Shown in pieces: positions 10,591 to 43,736 of a stretch of 64,000 nucleotides of DNA. Below the pieces are notes generated by a model. It worked only from the letters and a program-made list of their open reading frames with translations, was not told the DNA's origin and ran no database searches. Location of the stretch: contig CACYHL010000001.1 in assembly GCA_902774205.1 (NCBI GenBank), positions 20,022 through 84,021 of the forward strand. Direction: 5' to 3'. A program made the position numbers and the translations under genes. Within the stretch, counting starts at the first letter, position 1; every line of letters starts with the position of its first letter. Source of the stretch: an uncultured Bacteroidota bacterium (GTDB lineage: Bacteria; Bacteroidota; Bacteroidia; Bacteroidales; WCHB1-69).

Positions 10591-10594
10591 CATT

Positions 10595-15490: not shown

Positions 15491-15526
15491 CAGAAAATGC
15501 CAATAATATCGGATTTCTTTTTTTTG

Positions 15527-15534: not shown

Positions 15535-15613
15535 CAGTGAATTAGGAGTGAAACGTGCCAGTAATGGGATTTCGTTGTACAAAACTTTATGACAAAACAG
15601 AAAAGACAAACAC

Positions 15614-16840: not shown

Positions 16841-16843
16841 ACT

Positions 16844-19634: not shown

Positions 19635-19644
19635 ATGTATTTTT

Positions 19645-19724
19645 AGCGAATTTTTATCAAGTAAAAAAATCATAATTAGCGAACTTTTATAAGATAAATT
19701 TCGTATTTTTGCGAACTTTTATTG
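19645..19724 (+). repeat. three imperfect direct repeats GCGAAyTTTTAT spaced 32-33 nt apart
   Basis: agcgaatttttatcaag (19645), agcgaacttttataag (19678) and tgcgaacttttattg (19710). The third overlaps a TATTTTTG -7 box at 19704-19711. Confidence 0.6.
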
Positions 19725-19747
19725 TATAATAATTGAAAAAGAAATCC

Positions 19748-21040
19748 ATGGAATTGCAGAAAATTCGGGAAATTGTTGCGCAGCAGCGTGAAGAAGCACA
19801 TCGTATGAACGTACATAACTGGTGCGACCGAATGGAAGAGCAGTTTCTTGAATTGGATTCTCCATTGGCACAGATTGTCATTGGGGTGCGCAGAAGTGGG
19901 AAATCCACCCTCTGCCACAAGTTTTTAAAACAACATAACATAACCTATGCCTACATCAATTTCGATGATGAGCGCTTGGTGAATTTTCATACCGAGGATT
20001 TCGACCTCCTTTTGGAAGCATTGACAATCGTTTATGGAGATTTTGAATATTTGTTTGTTGACGAACCTCAAAATATCAACTATTGGCATTTGTTTGTCAA
20101 CCGCCTATTACGCCAGCAGGTTCATGTTTTCCTGACGGGCAGCAATGCCAAGCTGCTTAGTGGGGAATTGGCCACCCATCTCACCGGCAGATATAACCAG
20201 ATAGAGTTGTACCCACTTTCTTTTTCCGAATATGTGATCTTGCTGAATATTAATAGAGACCCCTTATTGATCCGAGACAAGGCTGCTTTGCAAATCGCTT
20301 ACGAGAATTACATCAACAAAGGAGGTCTGCCGGAAGTGGTTAGATTAACCAGATGGAAAAGTTACATTATCAACATATTCAATGCCATCTTGGAGCGGGA
20401 TATCATGCAACGCTTTCATGTTCGTTTCCCCTCCGTTTTTCACGATATAGCCCATTATCTTTTGAGCAATTTCACTCATGAGTGCAACTATGACCGGATT
20501 GCATCAATCTTCGGTGTCGCTTCTGACAAGACGGTAAGAAAATATGTTTCCTATCTTGAACAAGCTTATCTGTTCATCCCATTATATAAATTCTCCTATA
20601 AAAGTAGAATCCGCATGCGAAATGCGAAACTTTATGTGGTGGATACGGCTTTTGCAACGGCAGTAAATGAATTGTCGGGTGGGGACGATGGATGGAAGTT
20701 GGAAAATATGGTTTTTCTTGAGCTATTGCGTCGTCGCCAAGTAAACAACTACGAATTATTTTACTACAAGAACAATTACGAGATTGACTTTGTGGTTACC
20801 GTTGGTAAGAAAGTAGTGGAGTTGATACAGGTGTGTTCTGATATCAGCAATGAACGCACTCTTCAGAGAGAACTGAAAGCATTGGCAAACGGATCGGATG
20901 AACTGAACTGCCACAAAATGACATTAATTGCTAATTCTGAAAGCAGAGAAATACAGTATAAAGGAAAGGTAATCCAAATCGTTTCGGCTAAGGAATGGCT
21001 GCTGGAAAAAAATGGCATTGAGAACGTGAATGTACTATGA
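19748..21040 (+). CDS. AAA-family ATPase with DUF4143-type C-terminal domain
   Basis: The ORF-track start at 19733 is TTG; the first ATG is 19748 (MELQKIREI). Walker A GVRRSGKST and Walker B LFVDEPQ. Its stop overlaps the next start (ATGA). Confidence 0.7.
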   Translation: MELQKIREIVAQQREEAHRMNVHNWCDRMEEQFLELDSPLAQIVIGVRRSGKSTLCHKFLKQHNITYAYINFDDERLVNFHTEDFDLLLEALTIVYGDFEYLFVDEPQNINYWHLFVNRLLRQQVHVFLTGSNAKLLSGELATHLTGRYNQIELYPLSFSEYVILLNINRDPLLIRDKAALQIAYENYINKGGLPEVVRLTRWKSYIINIFNAILERDIMQRFHVRFPSVFHDIAHYLLSNFTHECNYDRIASIFGVASDKTVRKYVSYLEQAYLFIPLYKFSYKSRIRMRNAKLYVVDTAFATAVNELSGGDDGWKLENMVFLELLRRRQVNNYELFYYKNNYEIDFVVTVGKKVVELIQVCSDISNERTLQRELKALANGSDELNCHKMTLIANSESREIQYKGKVIQIVSAKEWLLEKNGIENVNVL

Positions 21041-24124: not shown

Positions 24125-24125
24125 T

Positions 24126-24914
24126 ATGAATATTTTGTTTACCTTGTGTGGCCGAGCCGGCTCAAAGGGCGTGAAAGGCAAAAATGCCCGCGACTTTTTG
24201 GATGTGCCATTGGTGTGGTATTCCATGGCCAACATTGCACTTTATATGGAGAAATATGCCGCCAACGATAATGTCAAAATTGTGCTGAATACCGACAGCG
24301 AGCCTTTGAAAGATTTGGTTCGCAAAGTAAAGGATGTGCCTGTTACGATTCTTCACCGCGAAGAGCATCTGGCAGGCGACAAAGTTGCCAAAGTCGCTGT
24401 TATCATGGACAGCCTGAACAAAGCTGAAGAGGCTTTTGGCACAAAATTCGACATGGTAGTTGATTTAGACATCACTTCTCCGCTGCGCACCGTGCAGGAT
24501 GTGAAGAATGCCATCGACCGCAAGCGCCAACGCCCCGAGGTGGATGTGGTTTATTCCGTGGCGCCCTCCCGCCGCAATCCATACTTCAACATGGTGAAAG
24601 AAGAAAACGGTTTTTTTTGCAAAGCCATTCCTTCCAACTTCACCACCCGCCAGGAAGCCCCTGTGTTTTATGACATGAATGCTTCAATCTATGCGTATGC
24701 ACCTGAGGCACTAAAAAACAAAGAACACACCACATTCTTCAACTCCAATTGCGATGCAGTTATAATGAAAGACACTGGAATCTTGGATATTGATTCTGAG
24801 GAAGATTATGAATTGATGCAGGTGATTGCGAAGTATCTGTTTGAAAATGACACGAACTTTCAACAAACATATCAAAAAACATTAAGTTGGAAACACAATG
24901 AGAAACAACGATAA
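24126..24914 (+). CDS. acylneuraminate cytidylyltransferase family (CMP-nonulosonate synthetase, LegF/NeuA-like)
   Basis: LCGRAGSKGVKGKN and DITSPLR blocks of the CTP_transf_3 family. Confidence 0.8.
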   Translation: MNILFTLCGRAGSKGVKGKNARDFLDVPLVWYSMANIALYMEKYAANDNVKIVLNTDSEPLKDLVRKVKDVPVTILHREEHLAGDKVAKVAVIMDSLNKAEEAFGTKFDMVVDLDITSPLRTVQDVKNAIDRKRQRPEVDVVYSVAPSRRNPYFNMVKEENGFFCKAIPSNFTTRQEAPVFYDMNASIYAYAPEALKNKEHTTFFNSNCDAVIMKDTGILDIDSEEDYELMQVIAKYLFENDTNFQQTYQKTLSWKHNEKQR

Positions 24915-25938
24915 ATACATAATTTCTGACACGCAATCTATTAAAGATGCCCTCTCCGCTCTGAATGAAATCGGGCACTCTGCCCAGACGCTTTTTGTAG
25001 TGGACAGCGACAACAAAATGGCGGGCACGCTTACCGATGGTGACATTCGCAGAAGTTTGATTGCTGGACTGCCGATAACCACGACTGTTGATGCTGTGAT
25101 GCACAAGGATTTTCAGTATATAACCCAGGCAGATTGGGATGTACGGCGGCTTAAAACCTTGAGAAAAAAAAACATACTGTTCATCCCGATTTTGGATGAA
25201 GAACGGCATATTTTGGGTGTTTGCAATCTGATGAAATATAAAAATATCCTTCCCATTGATGCCGTATTGATGGCAGGAGGCAAAGGCGAACGCTTGCGCC
25301 CCCTTACCGAGCACACCCCAAAACCATTGCTGCCAGTAGGAAAGAAGGCTATTATTGATTACAACATCGACAATTTGGCCTACTATGGTGTAAAAAATAT
25401 TTCTGTGACAGTCAACTACTTGAAAGAACAGTTGGAAGAGCATTTTGCCAGAGAGAGAGACGGTATAAAGGTGCAATGCGTGCGCGAACCTCGTTTTTTG
25501 GGTACGATGGGATCTGTGCAGTTTGTGGAGGAATTCCATAACGACACCATACTCATCATGAATTCCGACCTGTTCACCAATGTGGATTTGGAGGACTTCT
25601 ATTTGCACTTTAAAGAAACAGGCGCTGACATGTCTGCCGCTGCCATTCCGTATTCCGTATCTGTGCCGTACGGCATTTTCAATGTAAATGACGATGATAT
25701 TACCGGCTTGACAGAAAAGCCCACGTACAACTACTATGCCAATGCCGGCATATACTTGGTGAAACGGGAGGTCTTGGCTCTGATTCCGGAGGACACCTTC
25801 TTCAATGCCACCGATTTGATAGAGATGCTCATTGCCCGCCACAAGAAAGTTGTCCGCTTCCCCCTGCACGGCTACTGGATTGACATTGGCAACAAAGACG
25901 AATACGCCAAAGCGCAGGATATTGTGAAGCATTTATAG
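24898..25938 (+). CDS. CBS-pair plus nucleotidyltransferase protein (PtmE-like sugar-1-phosphate nucleotidylyltransferase)
   Basis: N-terminal CBS region (AGTLTDGDIRR) and C-terminal LMAGGKGERLRPLTEHTPKPLLPVG. This is the same architecture as Campylobacter PtmE of the GDP-linked legionaminic acid route. Confidence 0.7.
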   Translation: MRNNDKYIISDTQSIKDALSALNEIGHSAQTLFVVDSDNKMAGTLTDGDIRRSLIAGLPITTTVDAVMHKDFQYITQADWDVRRLKTLRKKNILFIPILDEERHILGVCNLMKYKNILPIDAVLMAGGKGERLRPLTEHTPKPLLPVGKKAIIDYNIDNLAYYGVKNISVTVNYLKEQLEEHFARERDGIKVQCVREPRFLGTMGSVQFVEEFHNDTILIMNSDLFTNVDLEDFYLHFKETGADMSAAAIPYSVSVPYGIFNVNDDDITGLTEKPTYNYYANAGIYLVKREVLALIPEDTFFNATDLIEMLIARHKKVVRFPLHGYWIDIGNKDEYAKAQDIVKHL

Positions 25939-26133
25939 TGTTTTCACTTGTGAAATTTCTCGTTACTATGTTGATTCTTTTCACAAGTTGAATTGAACTT
26001 TATTGTGTTTCTTTTGTTGAATTTATGTAGTTTTTTTATTCTATTCGGGAAAAATAGCTATATTTAATTGTAAGTTATTGAATGTGAGGTAATAAAAGTT
26101 TAGTAAAAACTAAACTATATCAAAAAAAAATTG

Positions 26134-26141
26134 TATGTTTG
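26134..26141 (+). promoter_or_regulatory. -7 box TATGTTTG ahead of the XRE gene
   Basis: TAnnTTTG 65 nt upstream of the ATG at 26206. A 7-bp palindrome AGTTTAG-n6-CTAAACT (26097-26116) sits just upstream. Confidence 0.45.
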
Positions 26142-26205
26142 CAGTCGAAAAGTTGGAGGCGGTTAGCGATACTGGTAAAGTGTTGTTCTTTAAGCTGGAT
26201 TAATT

Positions 26206-26517
26206 ATGATTTCGAATGAGAAATTACTAGAAACTCCCGAGTATTGGACCACCCGCATACAAATGGATTTATACACACATTTGCAGGATTATATGAAGGA
26301 GAATGGCCTGAACAGGGCGCAGTTAGCGCAAAAGTTGGGTGTGACCAAGGGTTATGTAACGCAAGTACTGAATGGTGATTTTGACCACCGGCTTTCCAAA
26401 TTGGTGGAATTGTCGTTGGCTGTGGGATTGATTCCACAATTGGAATTTGTACCTAAAAAGGATTTATTTCAAGAAATTAATGTTGAGGGTATTGGAGTCC
26501 CCTACGACTTGCCCTGA
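26206..26517 (+). CDS. XRE-family helix-turn-helix transcriptional regulator (possible antitoxin)
   Basis: LNRAQLAQKLGVTKGYVTQVLNGDFDHRLSKLVELSLAVGL is a canonical HTH_3-type motif; 103 aa. Confidence 0.8.
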   Translation: MISNEKLLETPEYWTTRIQMDLYTHLQDYMKENGLNRAQLAQKLGVTKGYVTQVLNGDFDHRLSKLVELSLAVGLIPQLEFVPKKDLFQEINVEGIGVPYDLP

Positions 26518-26582
26518 AGCGTATTTGTGGAGGACAGAAAAGCAAAGAAAAGGGAACACTTAATTTAGGCTAAACACAAGAG

Positions 26583-27494
26583 ATGATGGAAATATTGAAA
26601 AATGGAAACGAAGGAGTACAAAGGTTGAGATACTATTCTTCGCTTTTTTCTAGATCTGTATTTATGAGATTAATCAAATTTAATGATTTCTCAAAAATAG
26701 ACATGATTAGAAACGCATTCGATAGTGACCAAATTGCGCAGCAAATCACATATGGAGATTATTTGGATAAGATATATCTTTCTCTGGTGTCGCAGTACAG
26801 AAATGAGTATGTAGTTAAAAATGCACTTATAAATAAGATTGTAGCTACAAACAAATGTGAAAACATCACTGTTTTTAACGAGTTTAGAGTGGGCGATTCA
26901 ATAGCAGATGTGGTTACCTTTAACGGTAAGAGTCGTGCTTATGAAATAAAGACGGAATTGGACTCCCCAAAGAGATTGTGTAACCAATCGGATTCATATC
27001 TTAAATTTTTTAATGAAAGCTATATCGTTGTGCCCGGAAACAAGATTGAAACTTATCTTTCTTGCATTGATGATCGCATAGGAATCATTGCAGTGAGTAC
27101 AAGGAGCGAAAAAATAGCATTTTCAAAGTATAGGAGAGCAGAAACATTAACTGATAATATGGATGTTGACGTTTTGATGCGTGTCTTACGGATTTCTGAA
27201 ATGGAATATCTTGTGAAGAAATGGTATGGAAAGTTACCCGATGTGGGGTATTTTGAAATGTATGATGCTTGCAAAGAACTAATTCGTAAAATTCCCGCAG
27301 AGAAACTTTCTCGTATGGTAGTGCAAACTATCAAAATGCGTAAGGAAGATGACATTATTTTCAATAATAATAGAAAGAGTCTGACTCAGATTTGTCTCGC
27401 CCTCAATATTAATTCAGGCCAATATGCGCAATTGTGTAAAAATCTTAATAAAACAATAAATCCTAGTTATGTATTTCCCATTATTACGAGGTAA
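26583..27494 (+). CDS. PD-(D/E)xK nuclease-like protein (sce7726-family-like)
   Basis: 303 aa. The core FNEFRVGDSIADVVTFNGKSRAYEIKTELD gives E100...D109...E121-x-K123 (nt 26880-26951). YRNEYVVKNALINKI resembles the sce7726-type family as I remember it. No search was run. Confidence 0.5.
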   Translation: MMEILKNGNEGVQRLRYYSSLFSRSVFMRLIKFNDFSKIDMIRNAFDSDQIAQQITYGDYLDKIYLSLVSQYRNEYVVKNALINKIVATNKCENITVFNEFRVGDSIADVVTFNGKSRAYEIKTELDSPKRLCNQSDSYLKFFNESYIVVPGNKIETYLSCIDDRIGIIAVSTRSEKIAFSKYRRAETLTDNMDVDVLMRVLRISEMEYLVKKWYGKLPDVGYFEMYDACKELIRKIPAEKLSRMVVQTIKMRKEDDIIFNNNRKSLTQICLALNINSGQYAQLCKNLNKTINPSYVFPIITR

Positions 27495-28416
27495 ACAATT
27501 TGAATTGATTGCTCTTAAGGAGTTTGCTGGAGCTCATCCTGAGAATAAGTGGATATGCCCGATTATAGAGCCGGTACGCGTGATGCAGCCCTCTCATATT
27601 AAATCATCTCTTATGAAAGCTGCTGAAGTACTCTCACAAAATCGGATCCCGTATAGTATTATTTTGAATCCTGAGAGAGGAGACTATGCAATCACTTCGA
27701 ATCGATTCTCTGTGGCTGATTTTCTGTGCATGTTCAATGAACTGGAAAATCGTCCGATACCAGCTTTTTTTGCAGGTGGAAAATGTAATGAAGTGAAAAA
27801 TGCAATTGTTGAAAACGGGCTTGAGGATGTTATGGTGGTTTTTGAGGATTCTTTTGATATTGAAGAAGCTGATGAGCTTTGTTCTAATAAATCCGTGTCA
27901 TATATAGTGTGCGCTGATGCCGATTCAAGGAGCAATCTGCGCTACTTAATGCGTACTGGAAAGAAAATCATTCGGCTGGATGATAAGTTTATTGTTCGTA
28001 AGCCAAATACAGAGTATAGAGGACGAGATGAAGATTCTTACACAGAAGAGTTCTTTTATTATAAAGAGGACAGGTTCTATGGTTTCTCTGATTACTGTGT
28101 ATTGCCAAAAGAATTTTCTGAAGGCGGGGGTACGCCTACTGCAATAGCTATCCATATGACATATCGTAAAAAGGAGGACTCTATTTGGGTACGGCATTTT
28201 GTATCGGATGAAGCTTATGATACACAAAATATTCGTAATAAGTTCGGTAGTGCTGCAAAACATTTAGAAGTTTTTTACAATACAGTTGAGCCCACAGCGG
28301 CCGTTCGTTGGATGATTGAAAATCGTGGCAAATACCCGGGATTGGGCGTGCTAAAAAAAGTTACTATGCTGAACCATCTTGAACTCATTTCGAACATACT
28401 TTCAACAACAGAGTGA
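27469..28416 (+). CDS. Beta_protein / sce7725-family-like protein
   Basis: 315 aa. The ATG at 27469 overlaps the upstream gene by 26 nt. The N-terminal signature MYFPLLRGKQFELIALKEF...PIIEPV is what I recall for Beta_protein (PF14350)/sce7725. Confidence 0.5.
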   Translation: MYFPLLRGKQFELIALKEFAGAHPENKWICPIIEPVRVMQPSHIKSSLMKAAEVLSQNRIPYSIILNPERGDYAITSNRFSVADFLCMFNELENRPIPAFFAGGKCNEVKNAIVENGLEDVMVVFEDSFDIEEADELCSNKSVSYIVCADADSRSNLRYLMRTGKKIIRLDDKFIVRKPNTEYRGRDEDSYTEEFFYYKEDRFYGFSDYCVLPKEFSEGGGTPTAIAIHMTYRKKEDSIWVRHFVSDEAYDTQNIRNKFGSAAKHLEVFYNTVEPTAAVRWMIENRGKYPGLGVLKKVTMLNHLELISNILSTTE

Positions 28417-29417
28417 TGAATATCGACAAAAAAGACTACAAAAACAAGCGCATCCGAGAGTATATAACGGATAAAGAAAAAAATGGAGATAATGATTTTT
28501 CTGAGCTACAGGAATTCTTGTATTCGCTTTTAACTATTTTTACTGTTTCTGCAACAGGTGATCCTCTTTATGAACTTCTGCAACATGACTGGAATGTCTT
28601 CATGTCAGAAGATGCATGTAAAAAGGTGATTGGCGAGGTTATTCAATCCGATGCCGGAAGCTTTGCTAAAGATGGTATAAAAGACGGAGCTACTTTAGTG
28701 AAATATAAAAAGAATATTACCGATTGTATTGAAGCGTGGAAGACTCTGAAAGAGGATGTCAAATATCATCATCGGTTTACTACGGATATCAACAAGTTGA
28801 ATGCTGCTGGATGGAAGACGTTATTAGACAATAGATATGAACTGAATTTGGGTAAGTCCTTTTATCGTGCGCGTATTCATTACAAAAAAACAGATGTGTT
28901 TGGGAAAGAAGATATGGGAGCTCGTGAAAGGGGGGATTGTCCGCAGGGACGAGTAAATCCTGAAGGAATACCGTTCCTTTATCTGTGTGAAGAACCTAAA
29001 ACCACATTCTATGAAACACGGGTATCGATGCACGATGTGGTTTCCATTGGAGAATTTGTGATAAATGGATCTGATCCATTGTATGTGGAAGATTTGACGG
29101 ATATAAATTTAGATGAAATAGAAATTCTTGACGAAGATGTGGTTACGTTGGCCAAACGCAAACTGTTGATACGTACTTTGAGCGACGATATGTCGCGCCC
29201 TATGCGAAGATATGATTCTCCAATAGAGTATGTGCCTACGCAGTTTCTGTGCGAATATGTTCAACAGACACAGAATGTGTCAGGAATCCGTTTTTCCAGC
29301 TCTATCTATAAAAAAGGAACTAATCTTGTTATTTTTGACCCTGCTTTAATGCGTTGCATAGATGTAAAAGAGTATAGTGTTAAGTCACTTGATATTGGCG
29401 AAGAGGTTGTGGTTTGA
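28416..29417 (+). CDS. RES-domain protein with unassigned N-terminal domain (putative NAD+-targeting effector)
   Basis: The ATG at 28416 shares TGATG with the upstream stop (the ORF track uses the GTG at 28413). The C-terminal half carries the R-E-S triad in context: GRVNPEGIPFLYLCEEPKTTFYETRV and GIRFSSSIYKKGTNLVIFDP. Confidence 0.65.
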   Translation: MNIDKKDYKNKRIREYITDKEKNGDNDFSELQEFLYSLLTIFTVSATGDPLYELLQHDWNVFMSEDACKKVIGEVIQSDAGSFAKDGIKDGATLVKYKKNITDCIEAWKTLKEDVKYHHRFTTDINKLNAAGWKTLLDNRYELNLGKSFYRARIHYKKTDVFGKEDMGARERGDCPQGRVNPEGIPFLYLCEEPKTTFYETRVSMHDVVSIGEFVINGSDPLYVEDLTDINLDEIEILDEDVVTLAKRKLLIRTLSDDMSRPMRRYDSPIEYVPTQFLCEYVQQTQNVSGIRFSSSIYKKGTNLVIFDPALMRCIDVKEYSVKSLDIGEEVVV

Positions 29418-29522
29418 TTTTGGAAAATAGTGCTTTTGTGCCGTCACGGTTTAGGTGATGCCGGATGGTTCAGAAAGAGTGGTGATTTATAGAGATAGTA
29501 GTAAAAGAAGAGGAGTTGATAT

Positions 29523-30134
29523 ATGAGTAAAAGAGTTTATATAAGTGCGGACTATTCAGAGACGGATGGTGACCGTAGTGTAGTGGAAGAACTTCATAAA
29601 TGGGGTGCTGATAACCGTCATAAGGTTGATTATGTTGACACTGCCCAAGTGGTTTCAGGTAGCGTTTCAAAGGATGAGAATTGTCGTGCATGTGATTTGA
29701 AGGCTGAATTTAATAGGCAGATTAATGCCTCCTCTGCAGTAATATTTATCATCGGGGATAAGACAAAAACTCGCACCGCAGGCAGTACATGCCGAAGAGT
29801 AAGTGAAGGAATGTTCTGTGCATGTACACCGTACAAGCAGAATGTTAAGGGGACTTCTAGTTGCAAGATTATTATTGACCCTTGTAAGTATGGACCCAGC
29901 GATGACGTATGCAAAATAAATACATACTCGTATTTAAAACATGAATTTGAACAAGCCAAAAAGAAGAGCAAGGTGATTGTTGTAGTTTATAATTCATTTC
30001 GGAAACACCCCAGTTGGCTTCCTTCATATATGATTGATTATGAAAAAAATGCACATCCTTTCTGGAAAAAGAATATTTGGGGAGAAAAGGTAGGGGACTA
30101 TTCATTTATAAAGAAGACCTTAGGATATGAATAA
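29523..30134 (+). CDS. TIR-like domain protein (ThsB/DUF1863-like) with Cys-rich insertion
   Basis: KRVYISADY start, SSAVIFIIGDKTKTR and LKHEFEQA (candidate catalytic Glu141) follow the ThsB TIR-like pattern. Eight Cys (C54, C57, C90, C99, C101, C114, C121, C130) cluster in and around an insertion. Confidence 0.55.
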   Translation: MSKRVYISADYSETDGDRSVVEELHKWGADNRHKVDYVDTAQVVSGSVSKDENCRACDLKAEFNRQINASSAVIFIIGDKTKTRTAGSTCRRVSEGMFCACTPYKQNVKGTSSCKIIIDPCKYGPSDDVCKINTYSYLKHEFEQAKKKSKVIVVVYNSFRKHPSWLPSYMIDYEKNAHPFWKKNIWGEKVGDYSFIKKTLGYE

Positions 30135-30948
30135 GATCAAGCGACTTTTGTGGAATAAAGGTAGTTCTATAGCTTATGCTATTATTACTGCTATTTTCAC
30201 GCTCGTTCCTGAAGGAGTGTTTAAGTTTGGTATTGTGGATTGCACATGGCCGGAGGGAATATGCATATTGATTAATCGCTTGATTGTGTGTATTCTCGTA
30301 TTTTCTTTGGCAAACATTGCATACCGTTGTCATCGTAAGCACAGAAAAGAGGTTGCCATTTCTGGTAAAACTTTTTCAATCAAAATTGAATTTAATGATT
30401 TGTTCAAAGTTAAGTGTGGAAAAAAAGTCATTAATTTTGATGAGTGTTTCACCACGAAGGTTGGCGAAAAACCTGAAGATATTAAGCCAGATTCCCTTTG
30501 TGGACAGTATCTGATGAAATATCCTATTAATAATATGCAAGAGCTAATTGATGCGACGGGTTTGAGACCAATAGGGGCTTCATTGTATAAAAATAGACCC
30601 AAGTATGCCCAGGGAACACTTATCCCAAGAGATGATTTCTTGCTAATGGCATTTGCGGAGTTGGATGAAAAAGGACGGGGAACTATTACGTATGACAAAT
30701 ATTTGGAGTGTTTAAACAGACTTTGGGAGCAGATAGATCTCTATCATGGCACCGATGATGTTTATCTTCCAATCTTAGGCTCTCGTATTACTCGATTTGA
30801 TAAAGAACTTACACAACAAGAACTATTGGATATAATGATAACTTCGTATAGGTTAAGTCCAAAGAAACTAAAAAGACCTAGTGTATTACATATTGTATGT
30901 AAAGAGAGGGAAGGGTTTTCACTAAATAATGTTTATGGATTGGATTGA
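30127..30948 (+). CDS. two-TM membrane protein with C-terminal Macro-like domain (Thoeris type-II ThsA-like)
   Basis: 8-nt overlap with the TIR gene. There are two N-terminal hydrophobic helices (SSIAYAIITAIFTLV; ICILINRLIVCILVFSLANIAY) and a ~190-aa soluble domain (KVINFDECFTTKVG...). The architecture equals TM-Macro ThsA; the domain call was not verified by search. Confidence 0.45.
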   Translation: MNKIKRLLWNKGSSIAYAIITAIFTLVPEGVFKFGIVDCTWPEGICILINRLIVCILVFSLANIAYRCHRKHRKEVAISGKTFSIKIEFNDLFKVKCGKKVINFDECFTTKVGEKPEDIKPDSLCGQYLMKYPINNMQELIDATGLRPIGASLYKNRPKYAQGTLIPRDDFLLMAFAELDEKGRGTITYDKYLECLNRLWEQIDLYHGTDDVYLPILGSRITRFDKELTQQELLDIMITSYRLSPKKLKRPSVLHIVCKEREGFSLNNVYGLD

Positions 30949-31129
30949 ATACTGAGAACATGTAGACAGATTCTCTGGATAGGTGTAAACCCATCGAAAA
31001 AAAACTGACAATATTAAATAATTGACTATTTTATAACTTGAATGTTTTAGAGAATTTCTTTCATGACCAGAGTGGAAGATATAAAAACAACATAATCACA
31101 ATTAGAGAACACTTCATAATTGATTTTAT

Positions 31130-32581
31130 ATGAGAAGAACCATCATAACATTAGACACAACAGACAAGAAATATATTCCTGTGTTTGTTGTAATGGAAGA
31201 ATTGTACCCCGATATGCAGGATTATAATGCCAAAGGATTAAACAAACATCCCAATTCGTATGAACAAGGTAAAGATAATATCACTATAAGCATTGAAGAA
31301 TTCTCGGAGGAGGATCCCTTTTTGTTGAATGGTGGTTGTGGTAAGCTTGAAAGAATAGGAGATTATGAGGAAGAGCCCGGTAATGATTGTTACATGCTAC
31401 TTCCATCAAATGGTGATGGTTTGAATACACTTGCCGAAGTGCTTCCACATAGAGAATGCCCAAGAGAAGTGAAATGCATAATTGATTCTAATCGAGAAGT
31501 TTGGAATATTTTGTCAGGCGATGGAAGACTTTTGAGCCAATTGAAAAATATATCTACGAGATTTCTTGGATTTGACCTTACACTGTTTCCAGAGCATATA
31601 GGAAATTTTTATTGGGTACGATATAATCCATATTTAAAAAAAATATCATTCAAAGAGTCGAACAATCCCATAGGATTGACTGGAAGTATCGTTTACCGTC
31701 AAGGTCAACAACAACCTTTGAAAATAATAGTGAAAGATAAGCATAGTGGGTATCTAGTCTATACTGTTACAAAGGAATTGACTGGAAACGAGCGTGTTTT
31801 TTCATTGGAAACCCCTCTTCCTCCACATTTGATTTCAATAGAAATTCAGGATAAAGACGGAAACGTCATCATGTTTGATGAAAATATACGATTCATAAAA
31901 CAGATTGCTTTTGAAATTGGAGTTCATAAGATGGAGTTAAGGCTTAAAAAGCAAGGGAAGAAACCAAAGGATAATTATGAAGTTTCAATACCCAAATATG
32001 AAAATGCCGATAAATCTGTTATAGGAGAAAAACAGGATGAGGCATATAACGAATACTTTACAATAGCAGATAGTATATCACGGCAGCAGGCTGATAGAGA
32101 TGCTTTGAATTTTGTCTTTTTTGATGCCGATGAAAAAAATGTGCAAACGATTGTCAGTCAAGCAAAGGGAACCGTACGTAAAATGATAGAGACTGGTCGT
32201 AATGTATGTTATATTTGTGACCCATATTTCAATGCCAACGATTTTGTGGAGTATGTGTGCTATATTAAGAATTTGAATCTTGACATTAGAATTGTTGTTT
32301 GTAAAAGTCCCCAAGATAATGCGGAAGCTTATAACATCCGTTTGAAAGCATTGAAAGACATAGCAAACGATTACAATGCTAAAATGGGAAGAACTATTGT
32401 GGAATGTAAAGGGTTGTCGGGTTTTGGTTTCCACGATCGTTTTGTCTTTGCTGATAAAACTGGTTGGCTGATGGGAAGCTCGTTTTCAGAATTCGGCCAT
32501 CGAACAACCACTATTTCCAAAATTCCTGCATCGCACAGCAACTTGATTTTGGATAGGATTAATGGATGGTGGGAGTCCTAA
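31130..32581 (+). CDS. hypothetical protein; C-terminal K->R variant HKD/PLD-like module
   Basis: 483 aa. The N-terminal ~330 aa are unassigned. The C-terminus has CDPYFN (32216-32233) and FHDRFVFADKTGWLMGSS (from 32429), with HKD spacing H-x-R-x4-D-x6-G-S. Confidence 0.4.
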   Translation: MRRTIITLDTTDKKYIPVFVVMEELYPDMQDYNAKGLNKHPNSYEQGKDNITISIEEFSEEDPFLLNGGCGKLERIGDYEEEPGNDCYMLLPSNGDGLNTLAEVLPHRECPREVKCIIDSNREVWNILSGDGRLLSQLKNISTRFLGFDLTLFPEHIGNFYWVRYNPYLKKISFKESNNPIGLTGSIVYRQGQQQPLKIIVKDKHSGYLVYTVTKELTGNERVFSLETPLPPHLISIEIQDKDGNVIMFDENIRFIKQIAFEIGVHKMELRLKKQGKKPKDNYEVSIPKYENADKSVIGEKQDEAYNEYFTIADSISRQQADRDALNFVFFDADEKNVQTIVSQAKGTVRKMIETGRNVCYICDPYFNANDFVEYVCYIKNLNLDIRIVVCKSPQDNAEAYNIRLKALKDIANDYNAKMGRTIVECKGLSGFGFHDRFVFADKTGWLMGSSFSEFGHRTTTISKIPASHSNLILDRINGWWES

Positions 32582-32596
32582 TTAAAATGTAATGAT

Positions 32597-33160
32597 ATGG
32601 CAGACAATAGTAGTTTTGCTGAAAAGAATAGGATGCTAATTGGATCGACATATCGATTCTTTAACCGCGCTGATCATCCTTCAGCACCTGACGATTATCC
32701 AACTTACTATAGTGAGTTGCTTTCTCTTGCCAGTGTGTCAATTAAGATATGGGATCCTTATTTCAATATAGGTGACGAAGATTTATTTACAGTGGTTCCA
32801 GCAGGAGTTGATGTTATTATACTGTACACATACATTACATTCGGGAGATCGCGTAACCTTCAGCCTCAAGATGTAAAAAGCAGGGTTGAACCTAAACTTC
32901 CCATTGGGCATGGAACTCTAAAGGTGGCTTATCTCCCAGATTATGATACTATATTGTTTGAAAAAAGAAAGTGGCACGACCGCTTTCTGATTATTGATGA
33001 CGCTTTTTATTATTTGATTGGAGCATCATTAAGGTATCAACACACAAGCGCAAAATGTTTTGGGATATACGATATGGAGAATCATGATGACATTGCTCTC
33101 GTTAAAGAACGGTTTGACAAGATTCTTTATGAGGTTGAAAATAAAGGGTATGTAATTTAA
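32597..33160 (+). CDS. hypothetical protein; paralogous HKD/PLD-like module
   Basis: 187 aa. WDPYFN (32750-32767) and WHDRFLIIDDAFYYLIGAS (from 32972) are homologous to the C-terminus of the upstream gene. Confidence 0.4.
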   Translation: MADNSSFAEKNRMLIGSTYRFFNRADHPSAPDDYPTYYSELLSLASVSIKIWDPYFNIGDEDLFTVVPAGVDVIILYTYITFGRSRNLQPQDVKSRVEPKLPIGHGTLKVAYLPDYDTILFEKRKWHDRFLIIDDAFYYLIGASLRYQHTSAKCFGIYDMENHDDIALVKERFDKILYEVENKGYVI

Positions 33161-33170
33161 TCTCTGTGAT

Positions 33171-35054
33171 ATGATTGACAAAGAAACAATTAAAATAGAA
33201 ATATTACTCAAGGGTTACTGTGGAATAGATAACTGGCTGTTTAAAGAAAGATTTGAAACGGAACTGAGCAAGACACAATGTCCAATGGCAGAATTGATGG
33301 TTTTTGTTGACAAATGTTATTCCTTGTTGTCTGATAAATTGTTGAATAGTAAAGATATAATTACTGAATATTTTCCCATGCCACGTCTTCTTGAATGGAT
33401 GGATAAGAATTTTCCTCATGAACCTTTTGAAACTGAATGTGATTGGGTGGCATATACAGAAGAGTTGGTTTATGACAAGCTCTCTATAGCTAAACGGACA
33501 TCGTTTTACGGCGAAACACCTGCGTGGTGTGATTTGTTAGTTGGTTTTGCTCTGAAAATAATTGGAGAGAAATGCTCTGTAGACAATCGATTTCAGAGTT
33601 TTGGTTTTCTATCACACATTTGGGAAAAAGAAGAGTTGTCTTGGGAGTTTTTTGAAGGTTTTACCATATCCGATAGGGTATTAACTCAGGCAGAAAATGA
33701 CCTTAAGGTTGATCCGATGGAAATTTTATGTGGGTCTCGTATGATTGAAAAAGCATCAAACGCATACAATATAAGTGGGAAAAACCAGCAAGAAATACTT
33801 AACGAGTTGTATTGGTATGAAGAGGATGGCGGATATGTGGAATTTCCCGAAACTATCATACAGATTGCGCGTGCATTTAGAGAGGTCGGTAAAGAAGATG
33901 CATTCATTGCATTATGGAAGGCGCTTACTCATCCAACATTGCAGTACGGAATATTGTACTATTTGTTAATGCTGCCCAATGACTGTATTGGACTTTTGAA
34001 ACTATTTCAACAAAAGGGCGTTGACGAGGTTGGGCTTACACTGATAAGGGATTATTGGTTCAAACAATCTGTGAGGTGTCTCGAAAATTTGTTGCAGTTT
34101 GAGGAAAAGATAAAATCTGGCGAATATACCAATCCGGGAATTGTCTCTTTAGAAACAATGAAAGGCGATTTTGTCAAAGGTCTGCGCGATAATGCCAAAG
34201 AATTGATTCGATACTTTACGACCGAGAACCTGTCGCGATGGGCGTTTTCAAAAAACACATTAGGAGGTAAGCCTAATTCCATTTATAAAGAAGCTTATTT
34301 ACAAGTTCTTGGCATACTCAAAGATGTATTGAGTTCTGCCGATGATACTGATGCTTTTTCAACAGATACTAAAGATTTATCATATTTGATATACCTCGCA
34401 AAAAAGGCACTTGAAAACAATAATATAGAAAGAGGGAAACAGATAGAGCTTGTAAGTCTAAAGTTGATTGACACAGGGAGTTTTGGATGGTTTGGCGACA
34501 TAAATGATGAGGTGATTAATCAAATGTTTGTATTAGGGGGCTTGTTGAAAGTTAATCATTCTGACGAAGAAATCATTGATTTAGTTGAAAAAAGAGCTGT
34601 CCGATACGAAGGATGGGGTGTGACTCCCATTTCGAGCATATTAGAAAGGTCTAATTCTTTTACTTTTCTTACCTGTGCGGCCATGCAACATATAGATGTC
34701 GAAAACGACTTTAGGTATCTTGTTCGTTTAGCAATTGATCAGTTCAATGGGTCAAGAATGTTAAACAATGCTCTATTGGCTCCCTTGATTATGGCGGAGC
34801 TGATAGTAACCCAACAATATGATGAATGGCGTGATTGGTATGAACAATTGTTGTTGACAGAAATAGAGTCGTTCGTGTCTCTTTTGGGGATACTCATTCA
34901 TGCACAATCTTCTATGTCAATCACTAATAAGGAACTCTTCGATAAAAGAAAACAAGAAGAATGGAACTTGATTTTTAAGCAATACTCATCCAATCATCGT
35001 CAACTAGAATTAAATAAGTTGACAAAATTGATGGAGAAGATAGAAATGGAATAG
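33171..35054 (+). CDS. hypothetical 627-aa predicted all-helical protein
   Basis: Long uninterrupted ORF starting 10 nt after the previous stop. No Walker motifs, TM segments or other signatures recognised. Confidence 0.5.
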   Translation: MIDKETIKIEILLKGYCGIDNWLFKERFETELSKTQCPMAELMVFVDKCYSLLSDKLLNSKDIITEYFPMPRLLEWMDKNFPHEPFETECDWVAYTEELVYDKLSIAKRTSFYGETPAWCDLLVGFALKIIGEKCSVDNRFQSFGFLSHIWEKEELSWEFFEGFTISDRVLTQAENDLKVDPMEILCGSRMIEKASNAYNISGKNQQEILNELYWYEEDGGYVEFPETIIQIARAFREVGKEDAFIALWKALTHPTLQYGILYYLLMLPNDCIGLLKLFQQKGVDEVGLTLIRDYWFKQSVRCLENLLQFEEKIKSGEYTNPGIVSLETMKGDFVKGLRDNAKELIRYFTTENLSRWAFSKNTLGGKPNSIYKEAYLQVLGILKDVLSSADDTDAFSTDTKDLSYLIYLAKKALENNNIERGKQIELVSLKLIDTGSFGWFGDINDEVINQMFVLGGLLKVNHSDEEIIDLVEKRAVRYEGWGVTPISSILERSNSFTFLTCAAMQHIDVENDFRYLVRLAIDQFNGSRMLNNALLAPLIMAELIVTQQYDEWRDWYEQLLLTEIESFVSLLGILIHAQSSMSITNKELFDKRKQEEWNLIFKQYSSNHRQLELNKLTKLMEKIEME

Positions 35055-35088
35055 AGAGATAGTTTGCTGAATTACAATATTTTACGAA

Positions 35089-35367
35089 ATGAAAATCCAA
35101 ATCTTTTCTGATTCATTGGCTCTTCCTCGGGAAATTCCGCAAAAGGTCTATTACGAGGAAACATATTCTGCCAAATTGTCTAAGGATCATATTGTCGCAC
35201 AGTATTCTAAAGGCGCTGGGACAATTAAGGATTTATTAGACCAAACTTTTTACTACAAAATGTTTTGTCCGGATATCGTCATCCTTCAAAGTGGCATTGT
35301 TGATTGTTCGCCCAGACCTTTTACGCAGTTTGAAGAGCATTTTTTTACCCTTAATTTGTTTGCTTAA
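35089..35367 (+). pseudogene. 5' fragment of an SGNH/GDSL-type hydrolase gene
   Basis: 92 aa. IFSDSLA (block I-like) and QSGIVDC (block III-like) are present, but the ORF stops after ~40% of a normal SGNH length. Blocks with the catalytic D-x-x-H are absent, and only 118 nt remain before rfbF. Confidence 0.5.
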
Positions 35368-35448
35368 GGATGTGAGGCAGTATAAAAGATACAGGAAAAT
35401 TGGATTAAATGATTCAATTATCATATGCTTTAACATCTTTAAATTTTG

Positions 35449-35456
35449 TACTTTTG
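35449..35456 (+). promoter_or_regulatory. -7 box TACTTTTG ahead of rfbF
   Basis: TAnnTTTG 30 nt upstream of the ATG at 35486. Confidence 0.55.
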
Positions 35457-35485
35457 CAAATTGGTAATTTCAATATCGAACAAAT

Positions 35486-36283
35486 ATGAAAACAGTTATA
35501 CTTGCTGGTGGATTTGGCTCAAGAATCTCTGAGGAATCGGTATATAAGCCGAAACCAATGATAGAGATTGGGGGAATGCCCATCCTATGGCATATTATGA
35601 AGGAATATGCCTATTATGGACATAATGAATTTATTATATGTGCCGGGTATAAACAGGAGTATATAAAGGAGTGGTTTGCCAACTATTTTTTGCACAATAG
35701 TGATATTTCGTTTGATTTTCGTGATAATAGGAATGAAATGACGGTACATCATAGTCATTTGGATTCATGGAAAGTCACCATTGTTGACACTGGTTATAAT
35801 ACTATGACGGGTGGCCGCATTAAGAGAGTACAAGAATATGTGGGAGATGAAACCTTTATGATGACCTATGGTGATGGCGTGTGCGACGTAAATATTAATA
35901 AGCTACTTGAATTTCACAAAAGCCATGGTAAGATTGCCACATTGACTGCAGTGAAAATGGCTCAAGAAAAGGGTGTCCTTGAAATCACAAGCAGTTATGC
36001 TGTAACCGCTTTTCGTGAGAAAAATGCTAACGATGGCGCACCTATTAATGCTGGTTATATGGTACTTGGCCCAGAAATCTTTGAATACTTGGATGGAGAT
36101 ACTTGTGTTTTTGAACGCAAACCATTGGAGGATTTGGCCGCAAAAGGAGAACTGATGTCCTATATTCATGAAGGTTTTTGGCAATGTATGGACAACATTC
36201 GAGAGAAACAGTTATTGGAGAAATTGCTTCAAAACGGCACAGCTCCTTGGAAACGTTGGGAAAGTGAAGTGCCTAATATGTAA
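35486..36283 (+). CDS. rfbF: glucose-1-phosphate cytidylyltransferase
   Basis: MKTVILAGGFGSRISEES..KPKPMIEIGGMPILWHIM; 265 aa. Confidence 0.85.
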   Translation: MKTVILAGGFGSRISEESVYKPKPMIEIGGMPILWHIMKEYAYYGHNEFIICAGYKQEYIKEWFANYFLHNSDISFDFRDNRNEMTVHHSHLDSWKVTIVDTGYNTMTGGRIKRVQEYVGDETFMMTYGDGVCDVNINKLLEFHKSHGKIATLTAVKMAQEKGVLEITSSYAVTAFREKNANDGAPINAGYMVLGPEIFEYLDGDTCVFERKPLEDLAAKGELMSYIHEGFWQCMDNIREKQLLEKLLQNGTAPWKRWESEVPNM

Positions 36284-36294
36284 AACGTTGTATT

Positions 36295-37638: not shown

Positions 37639-37639
37639 T

Positions 37640-39252: not shown

Positions 39253-39254
39253 AT

Positions 39255-40130: not shown

Positions 40131-40182
40131 TCGATTTAACAACTTATAAAAAACAAACGATTAAAAACAAATATAAGAACTT

Positions 40183-41127: not shown

Positions 41128-41204
41128 TTTTTGTTAGAATTTGAGAATGAAAAAGTAAGTAAATGTTTCAAGCGTATCTTTCAAGGGTATTCAATAATTA
41201 TTCT

Positions 41205-41212
41205 TATTTTTG
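41205..41212 (+). promoter_or_regulatory. -7 box TATTTTTG
   Basis: TAnnTTTG 22 nt upstream of the ATG at 41234. It overlaps the TTG used by the ORF track. Confidence 0.5.
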
Positions 41213-41233
41213 CATATTAAAAAGAAACAGTCT

Positions 41234-42196: not shown

Positions 42197-42208
42197 TAGA
42201 ATTGAATT

Positions 42209-43735: not shown

Positions 43736-43736
43736 G

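Follow-up and report, generated by a model that had tools for sequence, protein, structure and literature searches.

A probable three-system defence island in an integrase-less hotspot of a Bacteroidales surface-glycan locus

Introduction

Core defence hotspots, such as cDHS1/2 of Pseudomonas aeruginosa and the MGE-free hotspots of Escherichia coli, occupy fixed chromosomal sites between conserved flanking genes and hold variable, defence-rich cargo that is often absent and lacks identifiable mobility genes; transfer through the flanking homology has been proposed (PMC10250203; PMC10121019). Several characterised gene sets bear on the cargo described here. The gop-beta-cII genes of the P4 satellite form an experimentally shown anti-phage system, in which Gop is toxic without Beta, and protect against lambda and P1 (PMC9122126). 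Type II Thoeris, of the Bacillus amyloliquefaciens Y2 type, sets a TIR-domain ThsB beside a ThsA that combines transmembrane helices with a Macro domain at its C terminus (for its mechanism, see bioRxiv 10.1101/2024.01.03.573942). RES domains, the probable NAD+-consuming toxins of RES-Xre modules (ParST/MbcTA-type), catalyse the phosphorolysis of NAD+ according to a passage in PMC9503650 that cites Skjerning 2019, and proteins of the VPA1262-family/PDC-S05 combine an N-terminal domain (NF040700) with a PLD-like C-terminal lobe.

Here we analyse a 64,000-nucleotide stretch (the window) from an uncultured member of the Bacteroidales, in which relatives of these systems lie side by side. We consider it very likely that 25939-35081 is a 9.1-kb, three-system defence island in an integrase-less recombination hotspot, 3' of a PtmE-like gene in a surface-glycan locus. 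The site shares the fixed position, conserved flanking genes, variable defence-rich and often absent cargo and lack of mobility genes of the P. aeruginosa and E. coli hotspots. Those are flanked by ordinary core genes or tmRNA/ncRNA, whereas the flanks here are genes of a hypervariable surface-glycan operon in a Bacteroidales host, with occupancy drawn from just 14 lineages on metagenome contigs.

Results and discussion

Extent and composition of the island

Table 1. Features of the island and the surrounding glycan locus (window positions)
Feature	Position	Strand	Basis or description
Second single-gene insertion, NeuB/NeuC junction	19625..21035	+	AAA_14 + DUF4143 ATPase, ORF 19733-21040
Left sugar genes	up to 25938	+	PglF-like, DegT, PglD, NeuB, NeuC, two GFO, CMP-transferase, PtmE-like
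Left anchor, PtmE-like CBS + nucleotidyltransferase gene	24898..25938	+	Pfam NTP_transferase 4e-38 + CBS
Probable defence island	25939-35081	+	Nine genes in 9.14 kb; an insertion when compared with close relatives
Left junction	25939..26205	+	Alignment with L089 island
Gp49-like/PDC-M64B gene stub	26135-26203	+	22 codons, MFAVEKLEAVSDTGKVLFFKLD then stop
Orphan XRE-type helix-turn-helix gene	26206..26517	+	103 aa; Pfam HTH_3 3e-6
sce7726-family protein, triad gene 1	26583..27494	+	NCBIfam NF033832 1.4e-49; PADLOC 'cll' 8e-20
sce7725-family protein, triad gene 2	27469..28416	+	NCBIfam NF033831 8.7e-68
RES-domain protein, triad gene 3	28413..29417	+	334 aa; Pfam RES 3.6e-15
ThsB, TIR-domain sensor and signal synthase	29523..30134	+	PADLOC ThsB PDLC00432 5.7e-98, full length
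ThsA effector	30127..30948	+	Pfam ThsA_Macro 2.8e-39; PADLOC PDLC00411 2.9e-99
483-aa protein, trio gene 1	31130..32581	+	NCBIfam VPA1262_N_dom 2e-39
187-aa stand-alone PLD-like protein, trio gene 2	32597..33160	+	PADLOC PDC-S05 3.8e-11
627-aa all-alpha solenoid protein, trio gene 3	33171..35054	+	AF2 model
Right junction	35055..35081	.	BLAST coordinates and alignment
Truncated SGNH/GDSL gene	35089..35367	+	92 of about 213 codons
Right sugar genes	from 35486	+	rfbF, rfbH-like, rfbG, epimerase, reductase
Right anchor, rfbF-like glucose-1-phosphate cytidylyltransferase	35486..36283	+	Pfam NTP_transferase

A sequence-only reading of this DNA had described plus-strand sugar genes running to 25938 and resuming at 35486, which the gene families on both sides bear out (Table 1). 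The interval between them holds ten plus-strand ORFs in the groups that had been proposed, with gaps or overlaps of at most 65 bp within modules and gaps of 105 and 181 bp between modules. The PtmE-like gene closes the nonulosonic-acid block; the insertion point is marked by its stop codon (25936-25938), and homology to empty-site relatives stops at 25937. It restarts at about 35074-35087, just 5' of the SGNH start codon, and the SGNH fragment shares 95% identity with its counterpart in the island-free relative L004. Since island-free relatives share this fragment, the island comprises nine genes rather than the ten first counted, and its right edge lies at about 35081, not 35485; the truncated gene is real, but it is locus backbone and not cargo. 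In agreement with the sugar-free gene content that had been claimed, no island protein matches a sugar-pathway family. SGNH is full-length in L089, L091, L094, L113 and L116 (213-216 aa and Lipase_GDSL_2 in L089, L094, L113 and L116). It was not the island that truncated the gene but the rfbF..glycosyltransferase cassette at about 35390-41188; L089, L091, L092 and L093 have no such cassette. The rfbF-like gene is the first of this CDP-sugar cassette, itself variable, and its product is 100% identical in L004.

At the left junction, about 100 bp are specific to the window, with the palindrome TTTCACTTGTGAAA at 25942-25955, and about 140 bp are common to the window and the alternative island of L089. 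A search of the island edges found no flanking direct or inverted repeats. The earlier statement that integrase, transposase and tRNA genes are missing from the edges agrees with tRNA positions (the sole window tRNA, a tRNA-Asn, is at 43736-43810) and with a Pfam scan that found no integrase or transposase among 50 window ORFs, a set that excludes four short ORFs on the plus strand of the left sugar region and several elsewhere. A TAnnTTTG box is indeed present on each side, TATGTTTG at 26134, overlapping the ATG of the Gp49-like stub, and TACTTTTG at 35449, near the rfbF-like gene, but the window contains 68 such boxes where 60 +/- 8 would be expected, so their number carries no significance.

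The island has a GC content of 0.366 versus 0.436 in the rest of the window, and its GC3 (0.337) is lower than that of the left glycan genes (0.499; Mann-Whitney p=1.6e-4) and housekeeping genes (0.541; p=1.4e-4), but does not differ from that of the right-hand sugar genes (0.376; p=0.37). The AT-richness noted by eye is thus confirmed by GC and GC3 against the nonulosonate flank and housekeeping genes, relative to which the composition is foreign, and not against the right-hand flank. The cargo of L089 is likewise GC-poor (0.367 versus 0.43 in its flanks).

Occupancy of the junction in relatives

Among 14 PtmE lineages, examined from metagenome contigs or MAGs and without a strain phylogeny, three carry defence cargo, all three different. 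The PtmE/SGNH junction is empty in L004, L091, L092, L093, L113-115 and L116-118, with a spacer of 17-22 bp, and holds only sugar genes in L119-124, L009, L028 and L094; PtmE followed directly by SGNH is the ancestral state. Of the two other, unrelated defence cargos, that of L089/L090 encodes Gp49-like/XRE, caspase-like, DUF4238 and 838-aa proteins, and that of L125/L126 a type II methyltransferase, a HATPase, AbiC/AbiP-like and two unknown proteins. All three cargos start at the first base 3' of the PtmE stop codon, just after which a weak match (13/18) links L089 and L125; the right ends of the cargos differ, the window and L089 cargos stopping before SGNH and the L125 cargo replacing SGNH through the GFO pair. 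The presence/absence comparison that had been called for therefore shows that the nine genes are not fixed. Because related strains have an empty junction or other defence genes at this point, the junction is a site at which immunity genes are swapped, which supports the earlier proposal of a defence hotspot in a surface-glycan locus. The island recurs in an identical context in at least five independent contigs and is therefore not an assembly artefact; exact copies of its proteins occur solely in this context.

The NeuB/NeuC junction carries a second insertion, an ATPase gene matching PADLOC PDC-S01 (5e-98) that is missing from L004, L009 and L094; a different gene (SLFN_AlbA_2 + HATPase_c_4 + HTH) occupies this junction in L091.

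Gene content

Defence models match six of the nine island proteins with E-values of 4e-11 to 3e-99, and a seventh weakly (3e-4). PADLOC, run as had been suggested and combined with Pfam and NCBIfam, confirms the defence character of three modules. These are independent, compact systems, probably of the abortive-infection type.

The first module had been read as XRE-nuclease-Beta-RES; the triad stands, but XRE is not a member and 'Beta' is a distant relative only. The sce7726 protein has a precomputed PF26915 Phage_P4_cII assignment and is 26% identical to P4 cII (E=2e-9), itself annotated as sce7726 family; its motif D105...E121-x-K123 is suggestive of a PD-(D/E)xK nuclease fold. The sce7725 gene overlaps it by 26 bp, and its product matches Pfam Beta_protein only along its first 60 residues, at E=0.03 (P4 Beta control, 4e-56), and P4 Beta itself by BLASTP at E=2e-4, making it a distant relative of Beta by a marginal relationship. 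The RES protein bears a 150-aa N-terminal extension and is the predicted NAD+-degrading effector of the triad. The order sce7726-sce7725-RES is conserved across phyla, recurring on Moraxella and Rhizobium plasmids, where the third protein is annotated 'RES family NAD+ phosphorylase'.

As in gop-beta-cII, cII/sce7726-family and Beta-like proteins are encoded with a toxic third component in a toxin-antitoxin-like, abortive architecture. In P4, however, that component is Gop (133 aa), to which the RES protein shows no similarity, cII is divergent and the system sits on a satellite; the triad here is co-directional and chromosomal, and PADLOC finds in the island only the cII-like component, with no beta or gop. 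By analogy with gop-beta-cII, the sce7726 and sce7725 proteins would restrain the toxic RES protein until a phage cue, whereupon the freed RES domain would destroy NAD+ and arrest the cell. RES-Xre modules likewise have an XRE gene near a RES toxin, but here XRE lies two genes from RES, as part of a decayed Gp49 pair, and RES is coupled instead to sce7726/sce7725. On the NCBIfam ParT model, whose cut-off is 110 bits, the RES protein scores 11.7 bits.

The XRE gene itself has a host-like GC3 (0.48), unlike the island. Its product, with a helix-turn-helix region at residues 22-75 in NCBIfam matches, is 84% identical to the L089 XRE protein (87% at the DNA level), which in L089 accompanies a full-length Gp49-like gene (142 aa; PADLOC PDC-M64B 3e-12, Pfam Gp49 weak). 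These two features, together with the Moraxella and Rhizobium triads being XRE-free, led us to reject XRE as a triad member; it is the leftover of a decayed Gp49-like/XRE pair shared with the L089 island. Stub and orphan are what is left of an earlier toxin-antitoxin-like module that this second island also has, and the orphan may still regulate downstream genes.

The TIR+TM-Macro module is borne out as thsB/thsA by PADLOC (models named ThsA1/ThsB1) and Pfam (ThsB_TIR 8.7e-6). The genes overlap by 8 bp, and ThsA carries its Macro domain at the C terminus and a pair of hydrophobic helices at the N terminus (roughly residues 14-37 and 41-66 by hydropathy). With full-length family-model matches and no architectural difference from type II Thoeris, this is an ordinary new member, with thsB before thsA, one ThsB and a Bacteroidales host. 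As in characterised homologues, ThsB would make a histidine-ADP-ribose signal upon infection, which would lead to cell arrest or death once bound by the Macro domain of ThsA, the membrane-anchored partner.

The third module had been called a PLD-like trio, which holds for two proteins; the other is an alpha-solenoid. The 483-aa protein begins with beta-sandwich domains and ends in a PLD-superfamily domain with the motif H435-D-R437...D442...G449-x-S451, invariant in 29 sequences; homologues carry PF13091 PLDc_2, and the AF2 model (pLDDT 82) matches Nuc, NucT, Zucchini and PLD3 in Foldseek. Its nuclease activity is uncertain, because Arg replaces the Lys of canonical HKD enzymes and its structural neighbours include non-catalytic proteins (TrmBL2, FAM83). 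It shares DPYF and HDRF...G-x-S motifs with the 187-aa protein. Nothing in Pfam, NCBIfam, PADLOC or the PDB matches the solenoid, and its model (pLDDT 82.5, pTM 0.71) resembles generic solenoids only; its 11 homologue clusters always stand alongside both PLD-like genes. The three genes always move as a unit amid defence genes (L103-110), in surroundings rich in RM, Pycsar, DarTG and AbiGi. They form a rare, uncharacterised three-gene system, which keeps the domain organization of the VPA1262-family/PDC-S05 but is split, with an extra mini-PLD and a private solenoid partner; genes beside VPA1262_N proteins in Azospirillum and Bacillus have no detectable kinship to these partners. The single PLD-like lobes would pair into a two-lobed phosphodiesterase, and we propose the solenoid as its sensor or scaffold.

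Alternative explanations

The interval could instead be a decayed site-specific element, integrative mobilisable or satellite-like, that has lost its integrase and ends, with an att-like insertion point. Three different cargos begin at the identical base, the window and L089 share the 140-bp left-end segment and Gp49/XRE module, L089 and L125 match weakly past the stop codon, and gop-beta-cII relatives of the triad reside on the P4 satellite. Even so, we think this unlikely: integrase, transposase, tRNA and repeats are absent from both edges, the cargos end differently on the right, viral-contig scans with triad and trio proteins gave no match, and exact copies are confined to one context. Somewhat less probable again is a selfish role, in which the genes act as toxin-antitoxin or addiction modules that persist through post-segregational killing and stabilise, or hitch-hike in, a hypervariable glycan locus without selection for defence. 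RES, Gp49/XRE and gop-beta resemble toxin-antitoxin modules, decay of the Gp49-like gene has left XRE orphaned, and recombination-prone glycan loci favour hitch-hikers; against this, experiments have established Thoeris as a dedicated immune system, gop-beta-cII confers protection from lambda and P1, defence genes abound in the trio's other contexts, and RM and Abi genes are found in the alternative cargos. Addiction and defence are not mutually exclusive views.

Sugar-nucleotide-like molecules can serve as substrates of Macro and PLD folds. This, with the GC and GC3 shared with the right-hand sugar genes and the operon's common strand and tight packing, would fit an AT-rich block belonging to the glycan cassette mosaic, its genes regulating or modifying glycans. 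We regard that as highly improbable, given defence-model rather than sugar-pathway matches, relatives that make the same locus without the island genes, and occurrences of trio and triad outside glycan loci.

Biological implications

Our preferred reading remains a defence island in a recombination hotspot. A 3.6-kb patch (35382-38982) is 97-100% identical between the window and L004, versus 73-93% elsewhere, and shows recent recombination right beside the insertion site; it carried sugar genes without the island. The earlier suggestion of a joint exchange of glycan and defence genes by homologous recombination is supported only indirectly. Because other mobility signatures are absent, homologous recombination via the flanking sugar genes is the most likely entry route: the island would arrive, and be replaced, through conserved sugar genes after DNA uptake. 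We count the site among the integrase-less core defence hotspots, here in a surface-sugar gene cluster of a rumen-type Bacteroidales/Prevotellaceae genome.

Setting and boundaries of the island

The window is Bacteroidota DNA: it encodes T9SS Por_Secre_tail domains, GldB and DUF5020, and TAnnTTTG-type boxes precede many of its genes, their number in the window being not above chance. A scan for sigma-70 promoters, which is ill-suited to Bacteroidota, and for terminators gave counts at or below shuffle expectation. Two stretches compared with a rumen-type 63.5-kb metagenome contig (ena:ERZ1029112:k87_4083939) were 99.98–99.995% identical to it, while the nearest species representatives by rfbF, Xylanibacter ruminicola and uncultured rumen Bacteroidales MAGs, reach only 85% identity. 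The window has an extended sugar-gene region (see table), within which the interval 25939–35485 holds ten ORFs, all on the plus strand.

The sequence-only reading had taken this whole interval as a ten-gene, AT-richer defence insert. Comparison with a relative's locus, L004, bears out the insertion and moves its right edge. L004 encodes an rfbF protein identical to that of the window and a PtmE (the CBS and nucleotidyltransferase gene that ends the nonulosonate block) 88% identical; in L004 a spacer of 17 bp separates the PtmE stop codon from the same truncated SGNH ORF. As L004 positions 9580 and 9598 align with 25937 and 35082, the insert runs from 25938/9 to ~35081, a length of 9.14 kb with nine genes, and the tenth, a 92-aa SGNH fragment, belongs to the locus backbone. 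SGNH is full-length (213–216 aa, GDSL family) in L089, L094, L113 and L116, and in L089 and L091–093 the GFO oxidoreductase pair comes straight after it, so the cassette from rfbF to the glycosyltransferase is an insertion in its own right, and its arrival cut SGNH to 92 codons.

Windowed GC falls to 0.34–0.39 over 26–36 kb, with 0.366 in 25939–35081 vs 0.436 in the remaining window. GC3 is 0.337 in the island, against 0.499 in the left glycan genes (p=1.6e-4) and 0.541 in the housekeeping genes (p=1.4e-4), but is not distinct from that of the sugar genes to the right (0.376, p=0.37), and codon-usage divergence of the island ranks the gene groups in the same order. The island is thus AT-richer than its left flank and the housekeeping genes, and not than the sugar genes on its right.

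Features of the glycan locus and its defence genes (window positions)
Feature	Position	Strand	Remarks
Sugar-gene region	~7.6–43.2 kb	+	almost exclusively plus-strand sugar genes
Aminotransferases and ATP-grasp gene, glycosyltransferase	within ~7.6–43.2 kb	+	
183-bp repeat, left copy	15308–15490		3' end of glycosyltransferase gene
Nonulosonate block	15614–25938	+	legionaminic/pseudaminic-type
NeuB–NeuC junction	19625–21035		ORF 19733–21040; TATTTTTG box at 19704
Palindrome	25942–25955		TTTCACTTGTGAAA
Gp49-like stub	26135–26203	+	
Module 1	26583–29417	+	sce7726, sce7725, RES
Module 2	29523–30948	+	thsB, thsA
Module 3	31130–35054	+	483-aa, 187-aa and 627-aa proteins
Patch nearly identical to L004	35382–38982		3.6 kb; rfbF, rfbH, rfbG
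Variable CDP-deoxyhexose cassette	~35390–41188		rfbF, rfbH-like, rfbG, epimerase, reductase, putative GT2; absent from L089, L091, L092, L093
CDP-deoxyhexose block	35486–41127	+	
GFO oxidoreductase pair	41189–43104	+	
183-bp repeat, right copy	43459–43641		far right of glycan region, adjoining tRNA-Asn
tRNA-Asn	43736–43810	minus	right of sugar region
gyrB, Mur ligase, RNase Y, ligA, yidC	right of sugar genes		housekeeping

Alternative cargos at the PtmE junction

Relatives were collected by anchoring on the SGNH fragment and on the closest PtmE clusters, which yielded 14 PtmE lineages. The window cargo is present on at least five contigs from several samples, and is not an assembly artefact. 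A second cargo is found in L089/L090 (PtmE 94–95%) and a third in L125/L126 (PtmE 86%); the junction is empty in L004, L091, L092, L093, L113–115 and L116–118, and holds only sugar genes (an acyltransferase or the GFO pair) in L119–124, L009, L028 and L094. The same genes are therefore not fixed at this position, as had been anticipated from the sequence. The second cargo (6.1 kb, GC 0.367 vs 0.43 in its own flanks) comprises Gp49-like/PDC-M64B, XRE, PDC-M64C-like, caspase-like and DUF4238 genes and one for an 838-aa protein, and the third a type II methyltransferase (MTase_II), a 750-aa protein with two HATPase domains, two unknown genes and an AbiC/AbiP-like gene. Three mutually unrelated, defence-gene-rich cargos thus share one site, and relative to the empty sites their left breakpoint is identical, at the first base past the PtmE stop codon. 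Their right ends vary: the window and L089 cargos stop just before SGNH, and L125 resumes at the equivalent of L004 position 17744, past the GFO pair. A left-end motif seemingly common to L125 and the window corresponds to the promoter-like TAnnTTTGCA consensus and was not taken as homology. Within the second cargo (L089 5277–9919), the caspase-like protein is a weak Peptidase_C14 match and the 838-aa protein, which has no family match, ends in His/Cys motifs (VHGG / VCHSG) that recall proteases of the CHAT/caspase type; with the DUF4238 protein these may form an uncharacterised protease-based defence module.

More distant relatives were reached by an rfbF scan of a genome collection, which returned 80 loci at identities of up to 85%, none with island homologues; PtmE lay upstream in just two, both with a GFO gene pair between. 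Looking up the exact sequences of ThsA, sce7725 and the 483-aa protein brought back the same contig context only, and so gives no sign of recent transfer of an identical island elsewhere.

The window and L089 have in common ~140 bp comprising the first 22 Gp49-like codons and sequence upstream of them, and an XRE gene 87% identical between them. The window has lost ~345 bp of the Gp49-like gene, which leaves a stub and an orphan XRE gene with a host-like GC3 of 0.48. Most simply read, the site would first have been occupied by an older TA-like module, with the cargo on its right exchanged or added later. Directly behind the PtmE stop, a window-specific segment of ~100 bp contains the perfect palindrome listed in the table, with a half-site-like TTTTCACAAGTTGAA 30 bp downstream; the palindrome could be a candidate operator for the orphan XRE.

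The same locus has a second, single-gene hotspot at the NeuB–NeuC junction inside the nonulosonate operon. There the window carries an AAA_14+DUF4143 ATPase gene (PADLOC candidate PDC-S01, 5e-98) and L091 a different one, encoding a 495-aa Schlafen/AlbA_2 + HATPase_c_4 + HTH protein; in L004, L009 and L094 NeuB abuts NeuC.

Gene content of the window island

The first gene of module 1 belongs to the sce7726 family (NF033832, 168 bits vs a cut-off of 70), with a PADLOC match to ‘cll’ (8e-20) and a precomputed Pfam assignment to Phage_P4_cII; P4 cII, which itself carries an sce7726-family annotation, shares 26% identity with it (E=2e-9). It shows a D...ExK pattern typical of PD-(D/E)xK nucleases and is a putative nuclease. 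The second gene is of the sce7725 family (229 bits), a sister family of Beta; it matches the Beta model PF14350 at 14.3 bits (cut-off 27) over the N-terminal 60 residues only, and P4 Beta by BLASTP at E=2e-4. The third has no similarity to Gop and carries a RES domain instead. The co-directional order sce7726–sce7725–RES recurs on plasmids of Moraxella osloensis (pYHS1) and Rhizobium phaseoli (pRphaN261b), and as XRE is absent from both of these triads we place it outside the system; of the XRE–nuclease–Beta–RES module first proposed, the triad remains and the XRE does not.

P4 gop-beta-cII protects against lambda and P1, Gop being toxic without Beta and a phage protein serving as trigger (PMC9122126). 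RES domains phosphorolyse NAD+ (PMC9503650, citing Skjerning 2019). Module 1 has the sce7726/cII-family member in common with gop-beta-cII, with Gop swapped for the RES protein. A RES-Xre toxin–antitoxin pair would be the other likeness, but the module 1 RES protein scores 11.7 bits on the ParT model NF049844 (cut-off 110), two genes separate XRE from RES where the toxin–antitoxin pairs them directly, and the window XRE is the counterpart of the Gp49-module XRE in L089. We conclude that module 1 is probably a gop-beta-cII-like system with a swapped effector. On the Enterococcus faecium plasmid p114-2 (L101 3306–5513) a GNAT acetyltransferase takes the RES position behind a sce7725-family gene, which suggests that the sce7726/sce7725 pair serves as a platform with exchangeable effectors. 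A viral-contig scan for sce7725 gave no matches, and a literature search found no published system name for the triad.

Module 2 is a type II Thoeris system in current nomenclature, an ordinary new member. ThsB (TIR) matches its PADLOC model at 5.7e-98 over residues 1–202/202 and Pfam ThsB_TIR at 26.5 bits (cut-off 21.2). ThsA, a full-length match to the ThsA model, carries two hydrophobic helices at its N-terminus and a Macro domain at its C-terminus (PF20016, 135 bits vs a cut-off of 25), and thsB and thsA adjoin with an 8-bp overlap. Type II Thoeris homologues signal through His-ADPR (bioRxiv 10.1101/2024.01.03.573942); such signalling, and phage protection, would be expected of module 2 by analogy with homologues only.

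The three genes of module 3 are always found together. The 483-aa protein is of the VPA1262 N-terminal domain family, with PLDc_2 in several homologues. In its AF2 model (pLDDT 82) a PLD-fold lobe comes after beta-sandwich domains, and for this lobe Foldseek (residues ~325–483) returned Nuc 1byr, NucT 6ehi, Zucchini 4ggj and PLD3 8v07 (probability 1.0, E=1e-4 to 1e-5). Its motif H435-D-R437-x4-D442-x6-G449-x-S451, invariant in 29 homologues, differs from the canonical HxK(x)4D of PLD (HKD) nucleases in having Arg where Lys stands. The 187-aa protein, a PDC-S05 match, shares the DPYF and HDRF motifs with the 483-aa protein, and the 627-aa protein, without family and with only 11 homologue clusters, is modelled as an alpha-solenoid (pLDDT 82.5) with generic fold matches only. 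We infer a putative heterodimeric PLD-type phosphodiesterase under the control of a solenoid that may act as sensor. A viral-contig scan for the 483-aa family and a plasmid search with the 627-aa protein gave no matches, and PDB sequence searches with six island proteins nothing useful. Azospirillum genes of like size partnering VPA1262_N were considered as the same trio and dropped, as they showed no sequence or profile similarity.

Elsewhere, the trio occurs with AAA_14/DUF4143, Dam-like methylase and AAA+S8 protease genes in L103–106 (87% identity) and beside Pycsar in L107–110 (49% identity). In L108 (ena:ERZ922469:scaffold_31, 312–16157) AbiGi, a response-regulator-like protein, the trio homologues and Pycsar (LRR-PycC, PycTM and a second PycC) make up a second case of defence genes among sugar genes, with a Polysacc_synt_2 dehydratase and FdtA-like cupin on one side and a DegT aminotransferase on the other; the outer flanks of L107 and L109 differ from these and include DarT and Macro genes.

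Mobility and recombination at the junction

That the island lacks an integrase was upheld. The Pfam scan of 50 window ORFs (a few small ORFs lay outside it) found no integrase or transposase, and the island edges lack a tRNA, flanking direct or inverted repeats and att repeats; repeat, tandem-repeat, tRNA and Rfam searches gave neither edge signatures nor ncRNAs. The core defence hotspots of P. aeruginosa and E. coli likewise have no mobility genes, and transfer through flanking homology has been proposed for them (PMC10250203; PMC10121019). At the PtmE site conserved genes bound a junction that is empty in some relatives and filled in others, the features by which a hotspot is recognized. We regard the defence island as confirmed, with corrected boundaries, and its interpretation as an integrase-less defence hotspot as supported.

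Whether defence cargo moves jointly with receptor genes is a separate matter. Over 35382–38982 the window and L004 are 97–100% identical at the nucleotide level, vs 90% in the SGNH fragment, ~88–97% in most of the left flank and 73–88% further right. This stretch, enclosed by flanks of 73–93% identity, is a recent recombination patch common to an island-bearing and an island-free lineage; it shows that homologous exchange operates at this junction, and the event behind it moved sugar genes without the island. Joint exchange of defence cargo with glycan genes is nevertheless plausible. The 183-bp sequence at the 3' end of a glycosyltransferase gene recurs on the far right of the glycan region (76% identity, same orientation), and in L089 and L091 the homologous glycosyltransferase is found downstream in inverted orientation. 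The 28 kb between the two copies may, as a whole, be one large replaceable cassette.

More generally, the conserved sugar-nucleotide genes of hypervariable Bacteroidales glycan loci might provide integrase-less defence hotspots with homology arms, a proposal that we advance tentatively and consider rather unlikely. Pointing that way are the three different cargos at the PtmE site, the second hotspot at NeuB–NeuC, and the position of the L108 trio homologues, Pycsar and AbiGi between FdtA-like and DegT genes. Were it true, phage-receptor type and part of the immune repertoire would be genetically linked and swappable in one recombination event. Our literature search turned up no account of a defence hotspot inside a glycan locus, which, its coverage being incomplete, is a lead to novelty only.

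Surface glycans rank among the major receptors of phages, and once inside the cell phages meet defence islands as the main barrier; to our knowledge, defence-island biology has been little studied in gut and rumen Bacteroidales. The island contributes two compact, uncharacterised candidates, a RES-armed gop-beta-cII relative and a split PLD-like pair accompanied by an alpha-solenoid protein, both of which may be new anti-phage systems. With three alternative cargos in a glycan operon and adjoining recombination tracts, this hotspot offers a concrete locus at which to ask whether, in Bacteroidales of the gut and rumen, immunity co-segregates with receptor variation or the two are swapped jointly.
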